Of a DNA stretch of 64,000 nt, positions 15,036 to 29,893 are shown piece by piece. A program made the position numbers and the translations under genes. Origin of the DNA: Candidatus Heimdallarchaeota archaeon (GTDB lineage: Archaea > Asgardarchaeota > Heimdallarchaeia > Heimdallarchaeales > Heimdallarchaeaceae); contig DAOVET010000003.1 of NCBI GenBank assembly GCA_030668825.1, forward strand, positions 1-64,000, read 5' to 3'. How positions within the stretch are numbered: position 1 is the first letter of the stretch; each line of letters starts with the position of its first letter. The notes under the pieces were generated by a model. It had not been told where the DNA came from. It did no database searches and saw only the letters and a program-made list of their open reading frames with translations.

Positions 15036-16478
15036 CTATATGTTTATAGTATTGAAGTCTGTTTTCTTATCCCTTTTTGTAGGATGGAATTTATCAATAA
15101 CTTCAGATGGAATACGTTTTAGCACTCTGTAAGGATCATCAAAAATTCCTAATAATTCCCAACCAACATCTAATGATTCGAAAATTGATCTGTCCTCATA
15201 GTAATCTTGATTGATGAATTTTTGCTCAAAAAGTTCTGCAAATTCGAGAGTCTTCTTATCAATATCTGAAAGCGATTCATCTCCAACTACAGCAACAAGA
15301 TCTCTCAAATCTTTACCTGTAGCATAAAGTGCGTATAACTGATCTTGAACATACTTATGATCACTTCTTGTTGAACCCTTTCCAATTGTATCTTTCATTA
15401 GCCTAGAAAGTGAAGGTAATGGATTAATCGGTGGATACAATCCCTTTCTGTTTAATCCTATATCTACATACACTTGTCCTTCAGTAATGTATCCAGTTAA
15501 ATCTGGTACAGGATGGGTGATATCGTAGTTTGGTAATGTTAGAATTGGAATTTGGGTGATTGAACCTTTCCTACCATGTATTCTTCCCGCTCTCTCATAT
15601 ATTGTTGAGAAATCTGAGTACATATAACCGGGATAACCTCTTCTGCTAGGAACTTCGCTTCTTGCAGCAGCAACTTCACGAAGAGATTCTGCATATGCTG
15701 TTATATCAGTGAGAATTACGAGCACATGATAATCATGATCATATGCAAGATGTTCAGCTGCTGTTAAAGCAAGACGAGGTGTTAAGAGTCGTTCAATCGC
15801 AGGATCATCTGCTAAATTAAGGAAAAGAACAACTTTGTCCAAAGCACCAGTTTGTTCAAAATCATCTCTGAAGAATCTGGCTTCATCTGCTGTGATTCCC
15901 ATTGCACAAAAGATAACTGCAAAATCCTCTTTTGCCCCAAGAACCTTTGCTTGTCTAGCAATTTGAGCCGCTAACATATTATGTGGAAGACCACTCCCAC
16001 TGAATAATGGTAGTTTTTGTCCTCTTACTAGTGTCAATAATGTATCAATTGTACTAATGCCTGTTTCTATAAACTCTTTGGGGTACTGTCTAGCAGAAGG
16101 ATTTATTGGTGATCCAGTGATATCTAGAATTCTTTCTGGTACTATATCTCCTCCACCATCTATGGCTTCACCTCTACCATTGAATACTCTGCCAAGCATC
16201 TCAGCACTAACACCTATTTTCATGGTTTCTCCAAGAAATCTACATATGGTGTCTTTTGTTTCAAGACCGGAAGTACCTTCAAAACATTGAATAATTGCGA
16301 GATTCTTAGACACATCTAGAACTTGACCTCTTCTTTTTTCTCCTGTTGTGGTGATAATCTCAGCAATTTCGCCATAAGATACACCACCCATTCCTTGTAG
16401 ATCTACAAACATCAAAGGTCCTGAAACTTCAATGACTGTTTTAAATTCTCTAGTTTCATATTTTTCTTGGACTGTCAT
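15036..16478 (-). CDS. atpB: A/V-type ATP synthase subunit B
   Basis: [47 protein letters not shown]. Confidence 0.97.
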
Positions 16479-16480
16479 TA

Positions 16481-18271
16481 TTAATCCTCCACACCAAAGG
16501 CTTGAATTGTCAAGCCATCTATTTCTTTCATCAACTCGTTTAAGCTCGTTTCAATTTCACTTCTTTCAATGTACTTCATTCTTGCAATTCTAACAACTAA
16601 TTCGTGCTCAAAAATGTCTGACACAATTGCCCCTCGTTTGTAGAGGTCTTGAGCTTTTTCGTAAAATCGTAGAATTGTTTTCAACATAAGATATTGTTTC
16701 TCCAAGCTGCAGAAACTATCTATTTCATGAAATGCATTTTGCTGTAAGAAATCCTCCTTAAGCATTCTCGCTGTTTCAAGAATGATTTTTTCACTTGGAG
16801 GTAAAGCATCAGGTCCAACCAGAGCAACAATATCTTGCAACTCCTTATCCTTTTGGAGAAGTGCTAAAGCCTCTGCTCGTAATTCAGGGAATTCGGGACT
16901 AACATTTTCTGAATAATAATCTTCTAAAGCTGACCAATAAAGAGTATAACTTAGTAAGTAATCAATCGCAGGAAAATGTCTGCGGCTAGCTAAATCTTTC
17001 GAAAGTGCCCAGAATACTTTGACAATTCTTAGTGTGTTCTGTGTAACTGGTTCACTGAAATCTCCACCAGGAGGACTGACTGCGCCAACTACAGTAATAC
17101 TTGCTTCTCTTGGTTTAGAACCAATTGTTAAAACACGACCTGATCTTTCATAATATTCAGCGATTCTTGAAGCAAGATATGCTGGAAATGATTCTTCACC
17201 GGGCATTTCTTCTAAACGTCCCGAGATTTCTCTCATAGCTTCTGCCCATCTTGATGTGCTGTCAGCCATCATCGCCACATCGTAACCCATGTCACGGAAG
17301 AATTCTGCCAGTGTGATACCTGTATAAACACTAGCTTCTCGAGCAGCTACAGGCATATTGGATGTATTAGCAATAAGTACTGTACGGTCCATCAAAGGTC
17401 CTCCTGTATATGGATCCACCAGTTTTGGAAACTCTCTGAGGACATCAGTCATCTCATTTCCTCGCTCACCACAACCAACATAAACCACAATTTTAGCATC
17501 AGACCATTTTGCTAGTTGGTGTTGACTGACAGTTTTGCCTGTTCCAAACCCACCAGGAATCGCCCCTGTTCCACCCTTAGCTATAGGAGCTATTGTATCA
17601 AAGATTCTCTGTCCTGTTATTAAGGGAATATTAGAAGGTAATCTCTGATGATAGGGTCTCGGTTGTCTTACTGGCCATTTGTGATAGAATTGTAAATCAA
17701 CTTTGTCGCCTGTGGGGGTAACAACAGTTGCTGATAAATCATCTACAGTATAATCTCCTCTTTGTGCAATGAATTCTAATTTTCCTTGAATATTCGGAGG
17801 AACCATCAACTTGAAATCTACAGTTGGAGTTTCCGGTATTTCACCCAAAATATCTCCTCCAACAACCTTATCTCCTACTTTTAGACTAGGTGCAAAAGCC
17901 CATAATTTCTTGTGATCTAAACCAGATATTTCAATTCCTCTAGCAATAAAATCACCCGAGACTTCTCGAATTACGGGTAATGGTCTTTGAATTCCATCAA
18001 AAATTTGTCTCATCAAACCTGGTCCAAGTTCAACAGAAAGAGGCGCGTTTGTTAAATGGACTGGTTCTCCAGGAGTTAACCCCTCAGTATTTTCATAAAC
18101 TTGAATTGTTGCTAAATCACCAGTAAGTCTAATAATTTCTCCTACTAGCTTTTCCTCTCCTACTCTTGCTACATCATATAGCTTAGAGCCTAGCATATTA
18201 GAAGCTTGAACAACTGGTCCAGAGATTCTATAGATTAAACCGATTTGTTCAGTATTAGTAGTAGTCATCAT
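16481..18271 (-). CDS. atpA: A/V-type ATP synthase subunit A (no intein)
   Basis: [11 protein letters not shown]-loop, [30 protein letters not shown]. Confidence 0.97.
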
Positions 18272-25491: not shown

Positions 25492-27303
25492 ATGCATTAT
25501 GTCCCAGATACTTCAACAATAATCAATGGTCAGTTTCTAAAATATCTTGCTGAAAAAGAAGATATTGAATCAATCGTTCTTTCTCGCGTTGTAATAGCTG
25601 AAATTGAAAATATGGCAAATCAGGCTAAAACAGCAGGTATGACAGCTTTAGAAGAATTACAACGTATGAGAGATTTTTGTGCAAAACAAGGTATAAACAT
25701 GATTATTGATGGTCAAAGACCAACATATAACCAAATTAGAGGGGCATCAATAGGTGAGTTGGATGCTCAAATTAGAGAACTAGCAGCTGAATATGATGCC
25801 ATTCTAATAACTTCTGACCGTGTAATGGCAGAGATAGGAAAAGCTGAAGGATTAGCAGTTGTTTTCATGAAAGAGGAAACAAAAAGTTTGGGAAAGAAAG
25901 TTGAAGATTATTTTGATGAACAAACTATGTCTATACATCTAAGAGAAAACAACTTACCTCTAGCAAAAAAAGGACTTCCTGGTAATTTTCAATTAATACC
26001 TCTTCAAGGAGAACCCATTTTAACTCGCGAGACATTAGATGAACTAGCAAAAGACGTAATTGAAAGAGCTTCTAGAGAAAAAGATAGTTTTATAGAATCT
26101 GACCGACATGGAACAACAGTAATCCAGCTGAAAAATACTAGAATTGTCATACTTCGACCCCCCTTCAGTGATGCGATGGAAATTACTGCTGTTAGACCAA
26201 TTGTAAAACTAACCTTAGGGGACTATAAAATTGATTCAAAGCTCCTTGAAAGGATAGAAACGCAAGCTGAAGGAATAATTATTGCAGGTCCACCTGGTGC
26301 TGGAAAAAGTACCTTTGCTACAGCAATGGCTGAATTCTATGCTGATAAAGATAAAATTGTTAAAACTTTTGAAAATCCAAGAGATCTCCAAGTGGACAAC
26401 AGAATAACACAAATGTCCGGTTTTGAAGGAGATATTTCTGCGTCTGCAGATTTGGTTCTTCTAATGAGACCTGACTATGTAATTTATGATGAATTGCGAA
26501 GAACTAAGGATTTCGAAACTTATTCCGATTTACGTTTAGCAGGAGTAGGGTTGCTTGGAGTTGTTCATGCTACTCAAGCTATAGATGGTATTCAAAGATT
26601 TATCAAAAGAGTTGATTTAGGTATTATCCCATCAATTGTTGACACAATTATCTTCATTTCTGAAGGGAAAATATCGAAGGTTTATACACTTGAGCTTACA
26701 GTAACAATGCCAACAGGACTAACTGAACGTGATTTAAGTCGCCCAGTTATTAAGGTTAAAGATTTTCACACAGATAAGGTTGAGTATGAAATTTATACAT
26801 TTGGAGAACAAATTGTTGTTTCACCTCTCATGAAACTAAGTATGAAACACTCTAAAACAGGTAAAACAATCACGGCTAATTCAGCTCAAATACAAAAGGT
26901 TCTCAAGAAATATTCTGTTTATGATTTTACCTATGACTTTGCTCCACCAAATTCTCTTACCCTATTTGTTTCCAATAAAGATAAACCCCGTGTAATTGGA
27001 AAGGATGGGCGTAATATTGATGAAATAGAACAGAAATTGGGATTATCAATAACTGTAAAATCATTTAACGAGCAAGAAGAAATGGAATTTGTCATTGATA
27101 TGTATCCGTCTAAGGGGAAACTTAATCTTGTGTTTCCTAGTGTTTGTATAGGTAAAGATGTTATTCTAGCAGTAAATGGATCACCTTTGACTCAATTAAC
27201 AGTTGGTAAAACTAGTGAAATAAGTGTCGCAAAAAATACAGAAATAGGTAAAATGCTCATGGAAGCTCATCACAAGGGAGATACCATTACAGCTTTATTG
27301 TAA
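25492..27303 (+). CDS. PIN-domain ATPase with KH domain (PINA, Holliday-junction branch migration ATPase family)
   Basis: YVPDTS PIN domain, GPPGAGKST, ENPRDL, RPDY.IYDE, VVHAT, VIGKDG KH loop. Confidence 0.92.
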   Translation: MHYVPDTSTIINGQFLKYLAEKEDIESIVLSRVVIAEIENMANQAKTAGMTALEELQRMRDFCAKQGINMIIDGQRPTYNQIRGASIGELDAQIRELAAEYDAILITSDRVMAEIGKAEGLAVVFMKEETKSLGKKVEDYFDEQTMSIHLRENNLPLAKKGLPGNFQLIPLQGEPILTRETLDELAKDVIERASREKDSFIESDRHGTTVIQLKNTRIVILRPPFSDAMEITAVRPIVKLTLGDYKIDSKLLERIETQAEGIIIAGPPGAGKSTFATAMAEFYADKDKIVKTFENPRDLQVDNRITQMSGFEGDISASADLVLLMRPDYVIYDELRRTKDFETYSDLRLAGVGLLGVVHATQAIDGIQRFIKRVDLGIIPSIVDTIIFISEGKISKVYTLELTVTMPTGLTERDLSRPVIKVKDFHTDKVEYEIYTFGEQIVVSPLMKLSMKHSKTGKTITANSAQIQKVLKKYSVYDFTYDFAPPNSLTLFVSNKDKPRVIGKDGRNIDEIEQKLGLSITVKSFNEQEEMEFVIDMYPSKGKLNLVFPSVCIGKDVILAVNGSPLTQLTVGKTSEISVAKNTEIGKMLMEAHHKGDTITALL

Positions 27304-27304
27304 G

Positions 27305-28021
27305 CTATGAACCCCTCTTTATCAATTTTGCACTATTTTTTTTACCAATAATGATTTTATCTGCATCAGAAGGAAATAGTCCATTTTCAACGATTCCAGC
27401 AATGTTATTCAAGTTCATCTCCATGTTAAACGGATCATATTCTCGTTTGAAGGTTATGTCTCCTATTATGTTACCATTGTCTGTTATAACTGGTCCTTTC
27501 TTTCCTGTACCATATCGAAGTTGAAGTTCTCCTCCTAGATTGAATATGGGTTGAAGAACTGTTATGATTGCCTGTTTTATGATTTCTACAGGAACGGGAT
27601 AGCTTAACAGATCTCTTGGATATTTTGAGCTATCTGCAATTACTAAGAATTCTTGAGAAGCTCTTGCTATTATTTTTTCTAATGTTAAAGCCCCCCCGCC
27701 TCCCTTAATCATAACATAATCTTTAGTAATGATATCTGCACCATCTACATAGATGTTTATCTCAGGATATTCAAGTAACGTTGAAACAGGTAATCCTGCT
27801 TTAACCAATTCAAGATGAGTTTCTGCAGAAGATGGGATAGTGATTATTTCCAATTCGTTTTTATCAACAAGCTCTCCTAATTGTTGAATGAAGTACTTCA
27901 CTGTTGAACCAGTTCCTACTCCTACAACAAATCCATCATAAATGAATTCTTTCGCTGCTTTTTGAGCCGCAAGAAATTTAGATTTTTCTTGATCTGAGAA
28001 TTTCGAATCTTTTGAATTCAT
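27305..28021 (-). CDS. rpiA: Ribose-5-phosphate isomerase A
   Basis: GVGTGST, DGAD, IKGGGGAL..EKI, VITDNGN, GIVENGLF. Confidence 0.96.
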   Translation of the reverse strand: MNSKDSKFSDQEKSKFLAAQKAAKEFIYDGFVVGVGTGSTVKYFIQQLGELVDKNELEIITIPSSAETHLELVKAGLPVSTLLEYPEINIYVDGADIITKDYVMIKGGGGALTLEKIIARASQEFLVIADSSKYPRDLLSYPVPVEIIKQAIITVLQPIFNLGGELQLRYGTGKKGPVITDNGNIIGDITFKREYDPFNMEMNLNNIAGIVENGLFPSDADKIIIGKKNSAKLIKRGS

Positions 28022-28182: not shown

Positions 28183-29067
28183 TTATTGCTGCTCGCTCAT
28201 GAATTTCTTTAATCTGTCTAATTCTTTTAACATCTCTTTTCGAAGAGCTGCTATCGATGTACTCTTAGCAAACAAATCTCCTTCTCCTTCTCCTCCCACT
28301 GGAGCAACTACTGGAGCTGCTGTTACACCTGGTGGTTTTGGAGTTGGAACAGTTGGTGCTGGAATTGAAGGTGTTGTAACTGGTGCACCAGTTGGTATTG
28401 GTGTTGGCATTGGTGGGCTTGGAATTGCTGTAGGCGGTGGTATCTTACCCACACCTGGAGGTGGTGGGGGAGCTGCTTTGCCAGTTACTGGAGGTGCAGC
28501 AGGTGTTGCAACAGCTTTGCCTTTTCTCTTCCTTTTTGGAGGTTTAACGGCTACTGGGGGAGCTGGAGGTGCAGTTACTGGGGTTGTTGAAGGAACATCT
28601 ATCTTCTCTTCACCCTTTATTTTACTCAGATAATCTCCCTGCATCTTCTTTAGTTCCTCTTCAAGTTGAGAAACTTCAGCTTCTCTTGCTGTCTTTTCAA
28701 TCTCATCTTCAATTTTCTTAACATCAGATGCGTATCTTACTGATAGTCTACCGAATACCGATTCACTAATTTCCTTCTTTCTATGTGTATTAGACAAAGC
28801 TTGTTGTGCTGCCTCGAACTTTGTTTTTTCAATTTTAAGAATAGCAATACGTTCTGAAGAAGGAATATCTGAAGGTGTGGGTAGATCTGAATCCATATCT
28901 AAACCAAGGAGAGAAGGGGCTTCTTTCTTTCGGTATACTCTAGTTGTAATGAATACTACAAGAGCACTTAGAAATGTGAAAATAACTAAAAGGTAAATTA
29001 GCATCTTCACTCCTGTGTCAGTTAAACTTGCTGGTGGTAAATTCTCAAACCAATCTATAAGCGACAT
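28183..29067 (-). CDS. Single-pass membrane protein with coiled coil, proline-rich region and C-terminal amphipathic helix
   Basis: TM LIYLLVIFTFLSALVVFIT followed by RVYRKK; coiled coil; PPAPP, PPPPP, IPPP; ends SIAALRKEMLKELDRLKKFMSEQQ. Confidence 0.8.
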   Translation of the reverse strand: MSLIDWFENLPPASLTDTGVKMLIYLLVIFTFLSALVVFITTRVYRKKEAPSLLGLDMDSDLPTPSDIPSSERIAILKIEKTKFEAAQQALSNTHRKKEISESVFGRLSVRYASDVKKIEDEIEKTAREAEVSQLEEELKKMQGDYLSKIKGEEKIDVPSTTPVTAPPAPPVAVKPPKRKRKGKAVATPAAPPVTGKAAPPPPPGVGKIPPPTAIPSPPMPTPIPTGAPVTTPSIPAPTVPTPKPPGVTAAPVVAPVGGEGEGDLFAKSTSIAALRKEMLKELDRLKKFMSEQQ

Positions 29068-29242: not shown

Positions 29243-29893
29243 TCACTGCTTTTTAGCTTCCAGTATTGCTTTGACTCGTTTTAATCTCGAAAATGTTTCT
29301 CTTTCTTGTTCTTCAAGAGTACTCGCAATAAATTTTGCTGTTGCATGTAATTTTGGAATTAAAATATAGTTCAGAGCATTAACTCTTCTCTTAGTTTTAT
29401 TAATCTCAATAGCTAGTTTTTCAAGTAAAGTCATCTTCTCGGCTATAATCATCAGTGTTTTCAATGACTTGCGAAAATAAACTATTGACCTATCTAGTTG
29501 TGCACTCGAACTAGTTAGACCATAAAACACATCTTCTCCTTCCCTCTGAATCTCATTAACAATAAACCTAGGAGATCTAACACCCATGATACTAACAGTT
29601 TGGGGGGTGATTTCTAAAACAGCGGGTGCATATTGAGCAAGATCTCTAATTTTGTCTGGACCTACAATCATCTCAGCTTTAGCAAGAGATTGATACGCAA
29701 TTCTTAGTTCCTCTTCTACTTGTTTTCTTGCTTCTCTCACTTCATCTTTGATGGCATATAATTCAATAACTAGTGCGTCCATCTTCTCCTTGAGAAGATC
29801 ATGCCCCTTTTGAGCAAGCTTAATTCGAGATCTTGTATTAAGAAGCTCCATTCTTGTTGCACTAATTGTACCAAATTCTGGTGTTGCCATCAA
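29243..29893 (-). CDS. atpD: A/V-type ATP synthase subunit D
   Basis: ATRMELL, GHDLLKEKMDAL, EINKTKRRVNAL..ILIP, LEEQERE.F.RLK. Confidence 0.96.
   Translation of the reverse strand: MMATPEFGTISATRMELLNTRSRIKLAQKGHDLLKEKMDALVIELYAIKDEVREARKQVEEELRIAYQSLAKAEMIVGPDKIRDLAQYAPAVLEITPQTVSIMGVRSPRFIVNEIQREGEDVFYGLTSSSAQLDRSIVYFRKSLKTLMIIAEKMTLLEKLAIEINKTKRRVNALNYILIPKLHATAKFIASTLEEQERETFSRLKRVKAILEAKKQ

Follow-up and report, generated by a model that had tools for sequence, protein, structure and literature searches.

A predicted membrane-anchored protein of Heimdallarchaeia with a proline-rich arm and a near-invariant C-terminal helix

Gene, family and genomic neighbours

The window, a stretch of 64,000 nucleotides from a Candidatus Heimdallarchaeota genome, carries on its minus strand a gene for a protein of 294 amino acids, flanked by genes for A/V-type ATPase subunit D and ribose-5-phosphate isomerase A (Table 1). 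The gene is real. Its frame, 28183..29067 (-), is the longest at the site and begins with ATG (ORF list), and the homology search returned 88 homologues of the window protein. The parts follow each other as a short stub, predicted to lie outside, one membrane helix, a helical hairpin, a proline-rich arm of ~110 amino acids and a C-terminal helix, here called the end helix. The AF2 model has helices at 18-49, 70-96, 102-152 and 264-293 and low confidence at 153-263. Each feature listed by an earlier, sequence-only reading is present in the translation of this frame. An antisense ORF (28199..28633, plus strand) is Gly-rich and appears to be the mirror of the Pro codons. Short contigs of X17, a run of uncertain kind, lie within the gene and are not usable as expression evidence.

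The family is an undescribed membrane protein outside every Pfam family. At E <= 10, the window protein matched DUF6377, TcdA_TcdB and Trimer_CC alone, each under its cut-off. With the last 45 residues as query, a word-index search recovered the same family alone, the ESM Atlas search gave no usable match, and a full-text literature search found no paper on the motif or the family. One gene copy was detected in 42 of the 47 genomes of the order, and the genome of the window likewise has a single copy.

Table 1. Features of the gene and its direct neighbours in the window.
Feature	Residues	Position	Strand	Basis
Whole gene, 294 aa, membrane-anchored with proline-rich arm and end helix		28183..29067	-	ORF list, homologues
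N-terminal stub, short, acidic; conserved W, LPP, D, K21; predicted outside	1-21	29005..29067	-	alignment A1, positive-inside rule
Single transmembrane helix	22-42	28942..29004	-	hydropathy, AF2 helix 18-49
Basic stop-transfer RVYRKK, after hydrophobic stretch	43-48	28924..28941	-	sequence
Predicted cytoplasmic helical hairpin (helices 70-96 and 102-152)	70-152	28612..28860	-	AF2 pLDDT 76-91 at 71-140
Internal segment (..EVSQLEEELKKMQGDY), weakly like ESCRT-III tails	130-146	28630..28680	-	profile search
Disordered proline-rich arm of varying length and sequence	153-263	28279..28611	-	pLDDT 36-52
Basic patch KPPKRKRKGK in arm	175-184	28516..28545	-	sequence
PPPPP run	200-204	28456..28470	-	sequence
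End helix FAKSTSIAALRKEMLKELDRLKKF, amphipathic, basic, near-invariant, presumed docking peptide	266-289	28201..28272	-	alignments, AF2
A/V-type ATPase subunit D, upstream neighbour		29243..29893	-	PF01813, E 4.4e-54
Ribose-5-phosphate isomerase A, downstream neighbour		27305..28021	-	PF06026, E 5e-53

The ATPase subunit D gene adjoins the family gene in 24/47 related loci, in closer relatives only. The N-terminus of the subunit (..ISATRMELL..) was considered as a mimic of the end helix and rejected, with a score of 2.9 bits only. rpiA-like ORFs were found in 36/47 related loci, in 34 of them directly downstream of the called family gene, and this neighbour reaches relatives of 27-31% identity.

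Membrane helix, hairpin and arm

The membrane helix is a general property of the family. Exactly one such hydrophobic segment is present in 107/109 members, with a median hydropathy of 2.82 over 19 residues among all 109. On the N side of the membrane helix these members have a median net charge of -2, and beyond it one of +2. The arm and the end helix are predicted to be cytoplasmic because, in 106/109 members, the whole N-terminal side contains fewer Lys and Arg than the 15 residues that follow the membrane helix. By the positive-inside rule, we infer an outside N-terminus and place the rest of the protein in the cytoplasm. This charge pattern fits the topology proposed by the sequence-only reading (one N-terminal membrane helix, a basic stop-transfer and a cytoplasmic remainder), and a proline-rich region outside the cell, which that reading had named as a counter-argument, is not what the Lys and Arg bias predicts.

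The segment next to the membrane had been labelled SHOCT or coiled coil. KKEISESVFGRLSVRY (residues 97-112) and EEELKKMQ (136-143) lie inside predicted helices; the SHOCT label finds no support, as the window protein lacks a Pfam match to SHOCT (PF09851) at E <= 10. The hairpin was also compared with CdvA (PF18822) and with steadiness-box hairpins (Vps23 core, PF09454). A Foldseek search against the PDB yielded no match at E <= 0.001. The best rows for the hairpin were chains of the ESCRT-I headpiece (E 0.29-0.67, TM 0.78-0.79 at best). In VIA-align, the hairpin matched the ESCRT-I headpiece, CdvA and the Loki OST1 tail at Z 8.7-9.1 (6vme_C 8.9, 9s9g_A 8.7, 2f66_A 8.7), a level that unrelated hairpins equally reach. 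A PDB profile search with the family matched the CdvA sequence weakly (E 0.1). The fold matches of the modelled hairpin are at the level of any generic helical hairpin.

The proline-rich region with a basic patch and a PPPPP run was recovered at about 153-263, 175-184 and 200-204. Across the 109 members, the arm has 55-202 amino acids (median 125) and 30% Pro; in a nearly identical database copy of the window protein (P0001), 35 Pro occur within 115 residues (151-265). PPPP is found in 55/109 members, and a basic patch of the KPPKRKRKGK type is aligned in part of the family only. P[TS]AP occurs in 48/109 members and a MIM2-like regular expression matches 2/109; therefore, neither is a family feature, and both were discarded.

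Conservation and spread of the end helix

The end helix contains LRKEMLKELDRLKKF (residues 275-289), and 18 of the 24 positions F266-F289 are invariant in alignment A1 with 32 sequences. In 15 diverse relatives, 14-24 of these 24 residues are identical (58-100%). Relatives with a strongly kept end helix have whole proteins merely 26-31% identical, and three loci with 27-40% whole-protein identity (L033, L039 and L040) keep 19-20/24. The end-helix profile scored 77.8-78.8 bits in distant genomes (G035, G037, G041), compared with 80.2 bits for the window's own. The terminal amphipathic helix of the sequence-only reading is borne out by the AF2 model and the invariant columns, and its conservation among homologues, on which that reading depended, was observed. 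Versions in Asgard species include ..LREEMLKELDRLKKIM.. and ..LRDEMLDELNRLKKIM...

The conserved residues I18, L21, M25, L26, L29 and L32 (numbered as in alignment A2) lie on one face in a helical-wheel count; in the window protein, the conserved face includes I272, L275, M279, L283 and L286. An Eisenberg moment of 0.44 and a net charge of +3 over 20 residues would also suit a helix that has no separate partner and either bundles with itself into oligomers or anchors the protein at the membrane like the amphipathic C-terminal helices of MinD and FtsA. The roughly heptad spacing of the hydrophobic residues is in line with this explanation; tandem motif copies in a relative (P0197) could form a bundle, and soluble members and a GTPase with the motif would gain a membrane anchor. 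However, lipid-binding helices usually keep their character, not their identity, while the polar or charged residues S17, R22, E28 and K33 (A2) are invariant, and a second anchor is little needed next to a transmembrane helix. A helix without a separate partner is improbable.

The helix extends beyond the membrane-anchored family. The end-helix profile matched 44 cluster representatives among 1.84 billion, and a looser form sits on other heads in 204/332 genomes of the phylum. These heads of the arm-plus-helix module include soluble helical hairpins, a polytopic membrane protein and a Ras-like GTPase. P0197 has three tandem copies of the motif, ~20 residues apart, and P0210 is a Ras-like GTPase bearing two copies. 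The gene is lacking in 5/47 genomes of the order, and all five contain a Vps4 MIT domain. In family f28, the profile search detected the end helix in 0/71, with the MIT domain in 66/71 and actin in 18/18 genomes; f12, likewise without a detectable end helix, has the MIT domain in 12/14. The helix absences may reflect divergence past the reach of the profile. A comparison of the co-occurrence of the helix with actin and profilin versus Vps4 had been proposed. The helix could be followed across Asgard genomes in this way, but the phyletic pattern did not discriminate between partners.

Candidate partners and comparison with known systems

With a probability of about 0.8, the protein is a membrane tether, its end helix being a docking peptide for a slowly evolving cytoplasmic partner and its arm giving reach. 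In such a tether, the N-terminus of a single-pass protein would be outside and the helical hairpin in the cytoplasm next to the membrane. A flexible proline-rich arm of 55-202 residues would leave the hairpin and bear the basic amphipathic helix of 24 residues, one face of which would dock in a groove on its partner, a cytoplasmic protein that changes very slowly in evolution.

The leading candidate for this partner, proposed tentatively, is an actin-family protein. Its hydrophobic groove would be gripped by the end helix, as in arcadin-2/crenactin or WH2/actin, and the proline arm may hold profilin-actin as well. The degree of conservation, the repeated motif in relatives and, in one family, an actin paralogue in synteny lend the proposal indirect support. 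Within the order, actin is 78-100% identical, and the end helix is conserved about equally. The genome of the window has two actin genes, one at C31:118-1227 and one on C108. In family f19, an actin-family gene comes after the gene of a soluble member, within three ORFs and on the same strand, in 13/14 sampled loci from seven genera. The product of this downstream gene matches PF00022 with 286-298 bits. A gene of 120-130 amino acids after the actin paralogue was considered as a profilin and rejected: it has no Pfam match, and its sequence is winged-helix-like by eye. Several observations speak against actin. Profilin (PF00235) was not found in the assembly of the window, which is 90.6% complete. 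The synteny concerns one family and an actin paralogue, and an actin gene was nearby in 0/16 loci of other families and 0/47 Heimdall-type loci. Family f28 has actin and no detectable end helix, and neighbours elsewhere are a Vps22-like protein (three loci) and an Arf-family GTPase with an extra domain (eight loci).

A WH2 motif had been suggested for the C-terminus. LKKF is located at residues 286-289 and hydrophobic residues at 275, 279 and 283; nevertheless, AF2 predicts one unbroken end helix of 30 residues (264-293) in place of a short helix and an extended LKK stretch. The label is not supported, since WH2 (PF02205) gave no match for the window protein at E <= 10. Both observations also count against an actin partner. 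WH2 was also absent among the matches listed for 32 family members (25 of 33 families). It is decidedly unlikely that the end helix is a general Asgard actin-docking peptide, an archaeal counterpart of WH2, with proline arms feeding profilin-actin.

The ESCRT system is a further candidate. The end helix would be a MIM1-type motif for the Vps4 MIT domain or would bind a winged-helix ESCRT-II-like protein, and the protein would recruit or regulate ESCRT at the membrane, as CdvA does with CdvB via a C-terminal peptide. The MIM1 consensus is (D/E)xxLxxRLxxL(K/R) at the C-terminus. M279, L283, L286 and K287 fit these positions; the Arg position is E282, and it is also Glu in the two ESCRT-III tails of the same genome. 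The pattern [DE][LIMV]..E[LIMV]..L[KR][KR], composed post hoc with all three sequences known, occurs in the last 25 residues of 3/6584 ORFs of the genome: the two ESCRT-III proteins and the window protein. In all three it follows a Pro/Gly/Thr-rich linker. Leu-rich MIM1-like C-terminal helices have been described in Asgard Vps2/24/46 (PMC7240154). In L033, L039 and L040, the gene immediately upstream, on the same strand, encodes a divergent EAP30/Vps22-like paralogue, which has an orthologue on contig C69 (29516-30283) of the window's genome. The ESCRT-I and CdvA rows from the hairpin searches also point in this direction, but they are no better than those of any helical hairpin.

The Vps4/ESCRT explanation is weakened because the unbiased tail profile and the evolutionary rate go against it. 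When 56 ESCRT-III tails from the order were made into a profile, leaving out the window protein, the end helix ranked 54th with 1.9 bits. The genome's third-best match to the profile of 56 tails is the internal segment 130-146 (6.9 bits, E 2). In the reverse search, the best 25 matches of the end-helix profile in the genome include no ESCRT-III tails. Hhalign of the family (A1) versus 14 ESCRT-III sequences (A5) gave a probability of 2.6% over 18 columns and aligned the 130-146 stretch. Neither ESCRT-III/Snf7 (PF03357) nor CdvA (PF18822) matched the window protein in Pfam at E <= 10. In the three most distant loci with a Vps4 MIT domain, this domain retains 34-40% identity (27-30 of 69-80 residues), and ESCRT-III tails within the order fall to 5-11 of 22 identical residues, whereas the end helix stays; the endings of the tails do not change together. 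FAKSTSIAAL, the invariant N-terminal half of the end helix, has no MIM1 counterpart, and the MIT domain is kept in the five gene-lacking genomes and in most of f28 and f12. An ESCRT adaptor is unlikely. Of the interpretation by the sequence-only reading, an actin or ESCRT adaptor, the architecture and predicted topology hold; the family labels are not supported, given the missing WH2 match and the hhalign result.

The partner could also be another Asgard-specific hub, such as an Arf- or Rag-like GTPase extended by an additional C-terminal domain, a winged-helix protein or one not recognised so far. In eight loci of one Heimdall subgroup, seven of them with a called family gene, an Arf-family GTPase of ~308 amino acids (PF00025 at 8-173) is encoded directly after the family-gene site on the same strand. 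It carries an extra C-terminal domain of ~130 amino acids, whose sequence suggests, by eye, a roadblock-like fold. Arf-plus-domain GTPases are encoded at C50:682-1692 and C97:27866-28831. A Ras/Roc-type GTPase is located two genes off in four loci, three with a called family gene. The GTPase fusion P0210 fits the same idea, as does c1, a conserved protein of 84-98 amino acids encoded within four ORFs of soluble versions in 8/16 and then 8/14 sampled loci. None of these neighbours, however, is common to all helix-bearing lineages. The GTPases are each confined to one subgroup, and c1 has no homologue among the ORFs of the window's genome (hmmsearch, E <= 10). Such a hub is possible, if rather unlikely. 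The idea of a LAMTOR1-like protein that tethers a Rag-like GTPase was rejected, given a GTPase neighbour in one subgroup only and the motif on GTPases themselves.

An open question for models of the origin of eukaryotes is how Asgard archaea link their eukaryote-like cytoskeleton and their membrane-remodelling machines to the membrane. The Asgard actin regulators named in the part of the literature cited here are profilins and gelsolins only (bioRxiv 10.1101/2025.11.30.690169). The end-helix peptide of 24-29 residues is synthesisable, kept across most of the phylum and present on membrane anchors, coiled coils and a GTPase. Its partner could be a hub central to the cell biology of Asgard archaea. 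If general actin docking is true, the membrane-anchored version would be a pre-eukaryotic factor for actin assembly or attachment at the cell membrane, and the relatives with repeated motifs would act as nucleators.

Known systems share parts of this architecture. The WH2 consensus is an amphipathic helix of ~3 turns, a linker and an extended LKK[TV], and it binds actin monomers in the hydrophobic groove. WASP/WIP, Ena/VASP and Spire are alike in a proline-rich region directly before an amphipathic helix with LKK, and in tandem copies in relatives. Unlike these assembly factors, the window protein is without EVH1, EVH2, GBD or CA, and its end helix is predicted to be continuous over ~30 residues. 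The Asgard WH2-like motif described to date, in the cited part of the source, is LKDV between gelsolin domains (bioRxiv 10.1101/2025.11.30.690169). The MIM1 tails of the Vps2/24/46 class resemble the window protein in a short Leu-rich helix with basic residues at the C-terminus after a flexible Pro-rich linker. The window protein differs by having no ESCRT-III core, and its end helix has double the length of the tails and is much better conserved. CdvA of Sulfolobales is likewise a non-ESCRT-III component on the membrane side with a coiled-coil or hairpin body. Its flexible tail ends in the CdvB-recruiting peptide. The modelled hairpin superposes on CdvA residues 127-197 (PDB 9S9G; Z 8.7, rmsd 1.5 Å over 71 residues, not significant). 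CdvA differs by an N-terminal PRC barrel and, in the cited part of its description, no transmembrane helix (PMC12818579). Arcadin-2 of Pyrobaculum calidifontis (PDB 5LY3), likened here by its description, is a soluble protein that lacks a proline-rich arm, and its gene lies beside that of crenactin in the arcade cluster. It shares with the window protein a core, a linker that is not conserved and presumably has no structure, and a small conserved helix at the C-terminus, and this helix alone has binding activity, in the hydrophobic groove of the archaeal actin, crenactin (PMC5173319).

Anatomy and conservation of the family

The anatomy of the window protein is confirmed. Every sequence element listed by the sequence-only reading is present in the 294-aa translation (table). 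An AlphaFold2 model, built with an alignment of 32 relatives as input, consists of a membrane segment (helix 18-49), a well-supported hairpin (helices 70-96 and 102-152; pLDDT 76-91 over 71-140), a Pro-rich arm without confident structure (153-263) and a terminal helix (264-293; pLDDT 68-76 over 271-290). A Gly-rich antisense ORF over the gene can be read as merely mirroring its Pro codons.

Features of the family gene and of related or neighbouring genes
Feature	Position	Strand	Basis or description
Family ORF	28183-29067	-	ATG start, 294 codons
RVYRKK	residues 43-48	-	translation
KKEISESVFGRLSVRY	residues 97-112	-	translation
EEELKKMQ	residues 136-143	-	translation
KPPKRKRKGK	residues 175-184	-	translation
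PPPPP	residues 200-204	-	translation
LRKEMLKELDRLKKF	residues 275-289	-	translation
Internal stretch EVSQLEEELKKMQGDY, hairpin end	residues 130-146, 28630-28680	-	match to ESCRT-III-tail profile
Gly-rich antisense ORF	28199-28633
A/V-ATPase subunit D gene	29243-29893	-	beside family gene
Two PF00006 (A/B subunit) matches	about 15405-18271	-
PIN, T2SSE/AAA-type ATPase and KH domain protein	25492-27303	+	603 aa
EAP30/Vps22-like orthologue, own genome	C69:29516-30283	+	255 aa

Among 109 family members, 107 have a single hydrophobic segment, and in 106 the 15 residues past it contain more Lys and Arg than the entire N-terminal side. Because of this charge bias, the positive-inside rule predicts that the arm and the end helix are most likely cytoplasmic. 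The arm spans 55-202 residues with 30% Pro.

A word-index search yielded 88 homologues from Heimdall-group and other Asgard bins, all unnamed or 'hypothetical'. The source genome has one copy, as do 42 of the 47 genomes of the order, including 8/8 high-quality ones (40-position C-terminus profile). Conservation of the C-terminal helix, on which the adaptor idea of the sequence-only reading had been staked, was borne out: in a 32-sequence alignment where the arm is free to change in both length and sequence, F266-F289 keeps 18 of its 24 positions invariant, down to relatives of ~30% overall identity. Against 15 diverse relatives, 14-24 core positions are identical. Among Asgard genomes at least 80% complete, 204/332 match the end-helix profile at E <= 0.001; at this cut-off, there was no match in the genomes of families f28 (0/71) and f12 (0/14). 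Literature searches found no published description of the motif or family.

The best-fitting mechanism, with a probability of about 0.8, is a membrane tether that would present a one-faced docking helix, to be met by a very conserved cytoplasmic partner. Self-association or membrane binding as the role of the helix is quite unlikely.

Carriers of the end helix and gene neighbourhood

An exhaustive HMMER search of 1.84 billion cluster representatives with the end-helix profile matched only 44 of them (E <= 0.001). Most are membrane-anchored proteins of 290-370 aa resembling the window protein. In other families the carrier is soluble (190-290 aa), with an N-terminal helical hairpin, GPPxGPPK-type repeats and endings such as ..GLSSLRDEMLDELNRLKKIMRGE. 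The motif also occurs at the end of a 94-aa protein (P0208), together with a Pro arm in a polytopic membrane protein (P0211) and in three tandem copies, spaced by about 20 residues, N-terminal to the helical domain of P0197 (344 aa). P0197 has no Pfam family; by eye, its C-terminal part resembles a winged-helix domain. In P0210, two motif copies are combined with a Ras-like GTPase and a zinc ribbon.

The neighbourhood of the membrane-anchored, Heimdall-type form was surveyed in 47 related loci. rpiA-like ORFs are present in 36, and in 34 they lie directly downstream of the called family gene, including relatives of 27-31% identity. Upstream, atpD is found in 24 loci, all of closer relatives. 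The PIN/T2SSE/KH protein adjoins rpiA in 32/47 loci. In the window, the subunit D gene is solitary, ~11 kb from the two A/B subunit matches and separated from them by unrelated genes; contig C116 carries a further A/B pair. The subunit D N-terminus (..GTISATRMELLNTRSRIKLA..) bears a loose resemblance to the end helix as found in distant relatives (..SIAALRMEMLRELARLKK..), a likeness that is probably due to chance since it scores only 2.9 bits with the helix profile.

In eight loci of one subgroup, seven of them with a called family gene, an Arf-family GTPase of roughly 308 aa with an extra C-terminal domain directly follows the place of the family gene. Another hub as the partner, for example a GTPase module, is somewhat unlikely.

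ESCRT comparisons

The sequence-only reading had labelled parts of the protein SHOCT and WH2-like. Neither label was upheld by Pfam: the matches of the window protein are DUF6377, TcdA_TcdB and Trimer_CC alone, each far under the cut-off, and WH2, Snf7, CdvA, Vps23 and SHOCT are absent among the best 25 of 33 Pfam families matched by 32 members. No Foldseek match reached E <= 0.001, and the highest-ranked ones were hairpins of the ESCRT-I headpiece (E 0.29-0.67). VIA-align Z scores of 8.7-9.4, an ordinary level for such shapes, were obtained with helical hairpins from many unrelated proteins: HIV gp41, a PadR regulator, the Loki OST1 cytoplasmic domain, ESCRT-I headpiece, CdvA and Snf7.

Vps4/ESCRT as partner or role is improbable. 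The ESCRT locus on contig C2 of the same genome encodes two ESCRT-III proteins, Vps4 and a Vps22-like protein. The ESCRT-III tails end in ..SELEAELEGLKKKMKEDN and ..DDLEDEIQKLRRREED, the window protein in ..KEMLKELDRLKKFMSEQQ. The noted MIM1 resemblance held insofar as a MIM1-position pattern within the last 25 residues is common to 3/6584 ORFs of this genome, the two ESCRT-III proteins and the window protein; this pattern is post hoc because it was written after seeing the three sequences. MIM1 in eukaryotes has an Arg where these tails have a Glu. The resemblance was lost with a profile of 56 ESCRT-III tails of the order, in which the end helix ranked 54th (1.9 bits). The third-best match of this profile in the genome was instead residues 130-143 of the window protein (6.9 bits, E 2, not significant), within the internal stretch 130-146 that is strongly conserved among closer relatives. 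Conversely, ESCRT-III tails are not among the best 25 matches of the end-helix profile in this genome, and 0 of 14 end-helix representatives examined are ESCRT-III proteins. The family compared with 14 ESCRT-III proteins of the order by hhalign gave a probability of 2.6% over 18 columns.

Compared with the most distant family of the order, this genome's MIT domain shows 34-40% identity, and class-A ESCRT-III tails keep 5-11/22 positions. The end helix keeps 19-20/24 in relatives of 27-40% identity (loci L033, L039 and L040), and in the distant genomes G035, G037 and G041 it still scores 77.8-78.8 bits with the end-helix profile, versus 80.2 for the window's own. The two kinds of endings are not changing in step. 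The ESCRT reading fails the unbiased profile tests, and the evolutionary rates also disagree with it. In L033, L040 and L039, the gene immediately upstream of the family gene is a divergent EAP30/Vps22-like paralogue; its orthologue in the source genome is a second, divergent gene outside the ESCRT locus.

Actin and known systems

An actin-family protein is the leading, though still tentative, candidate for the partner of the docking helix. Actin is 78-100% identical in the same genomes, matching the conservation of the end helix. Further support for this reading comes from the short helix recurring in tandem at even spacing, from the proline-rich run immediately ahead of it and from synteny with an actin paralogue in family f19. 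There, the gene order is family gene, PIG-L deacetylase, actin-family paralogue and a small winged-helix-like protein. The paralogue matches PF00022 with 286-298 bits versus 430-446 for main actins. In 13/14 f19 loci from 7 genera, an actin-family ORF follows downstream on the same strand at a distance of no more than three ORFs; 16 loci of other families and the 47 Heimdall-type loci have no actin gene close to the family gene.

Near soluble versions, a protein of 84-98 aa (c1) is encoded at most four ORFs from the family gene in 8/16, then 8/14 sampled loci. Pfam places it in no family, and the ORFs of the source genome include no homologue. The conserved f19 cluster (L151-L153, L159-L169) combines c1, the soluble Pro-arm/end-helix protein, the deacetylase and the actin paralogue, and ends with one or two 120-130-aa proteins resembling winged helices. 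In four f28 genomes (G269, G272, G273, G289), the main actin match has 30 extra bases (1134 vs 1104) and one in-frame stop (TAA/TGA), which would fit a small insertion, an intron-like element or recoding in the actin gene.

No profilin was found by Pfam in the source genome. The affinity of Heimdall and Thor profilins for a VASP polyproline peptide is low (0.3-3.3 mM; PMC8410842). In Lokiarchaeum, the proteins reported by a preprint to co-purify with Lokiactin include an Arf GTPase, a profilin and five of gelsolin type, and the sole 'WH2' named in its section 9 is LKDV between gelsolin domains (10.1101/2025.11.30.690169).

Among known archaeal proteins, a CdvA sequence was matched by the family profile at E 0.1. 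Arcadin-2 is a precedent from archaea for this design: its C-terminal helix, which is conserved although the linker that carries it is not, plugs the hydrophobic groove of actin (PMC5173319).
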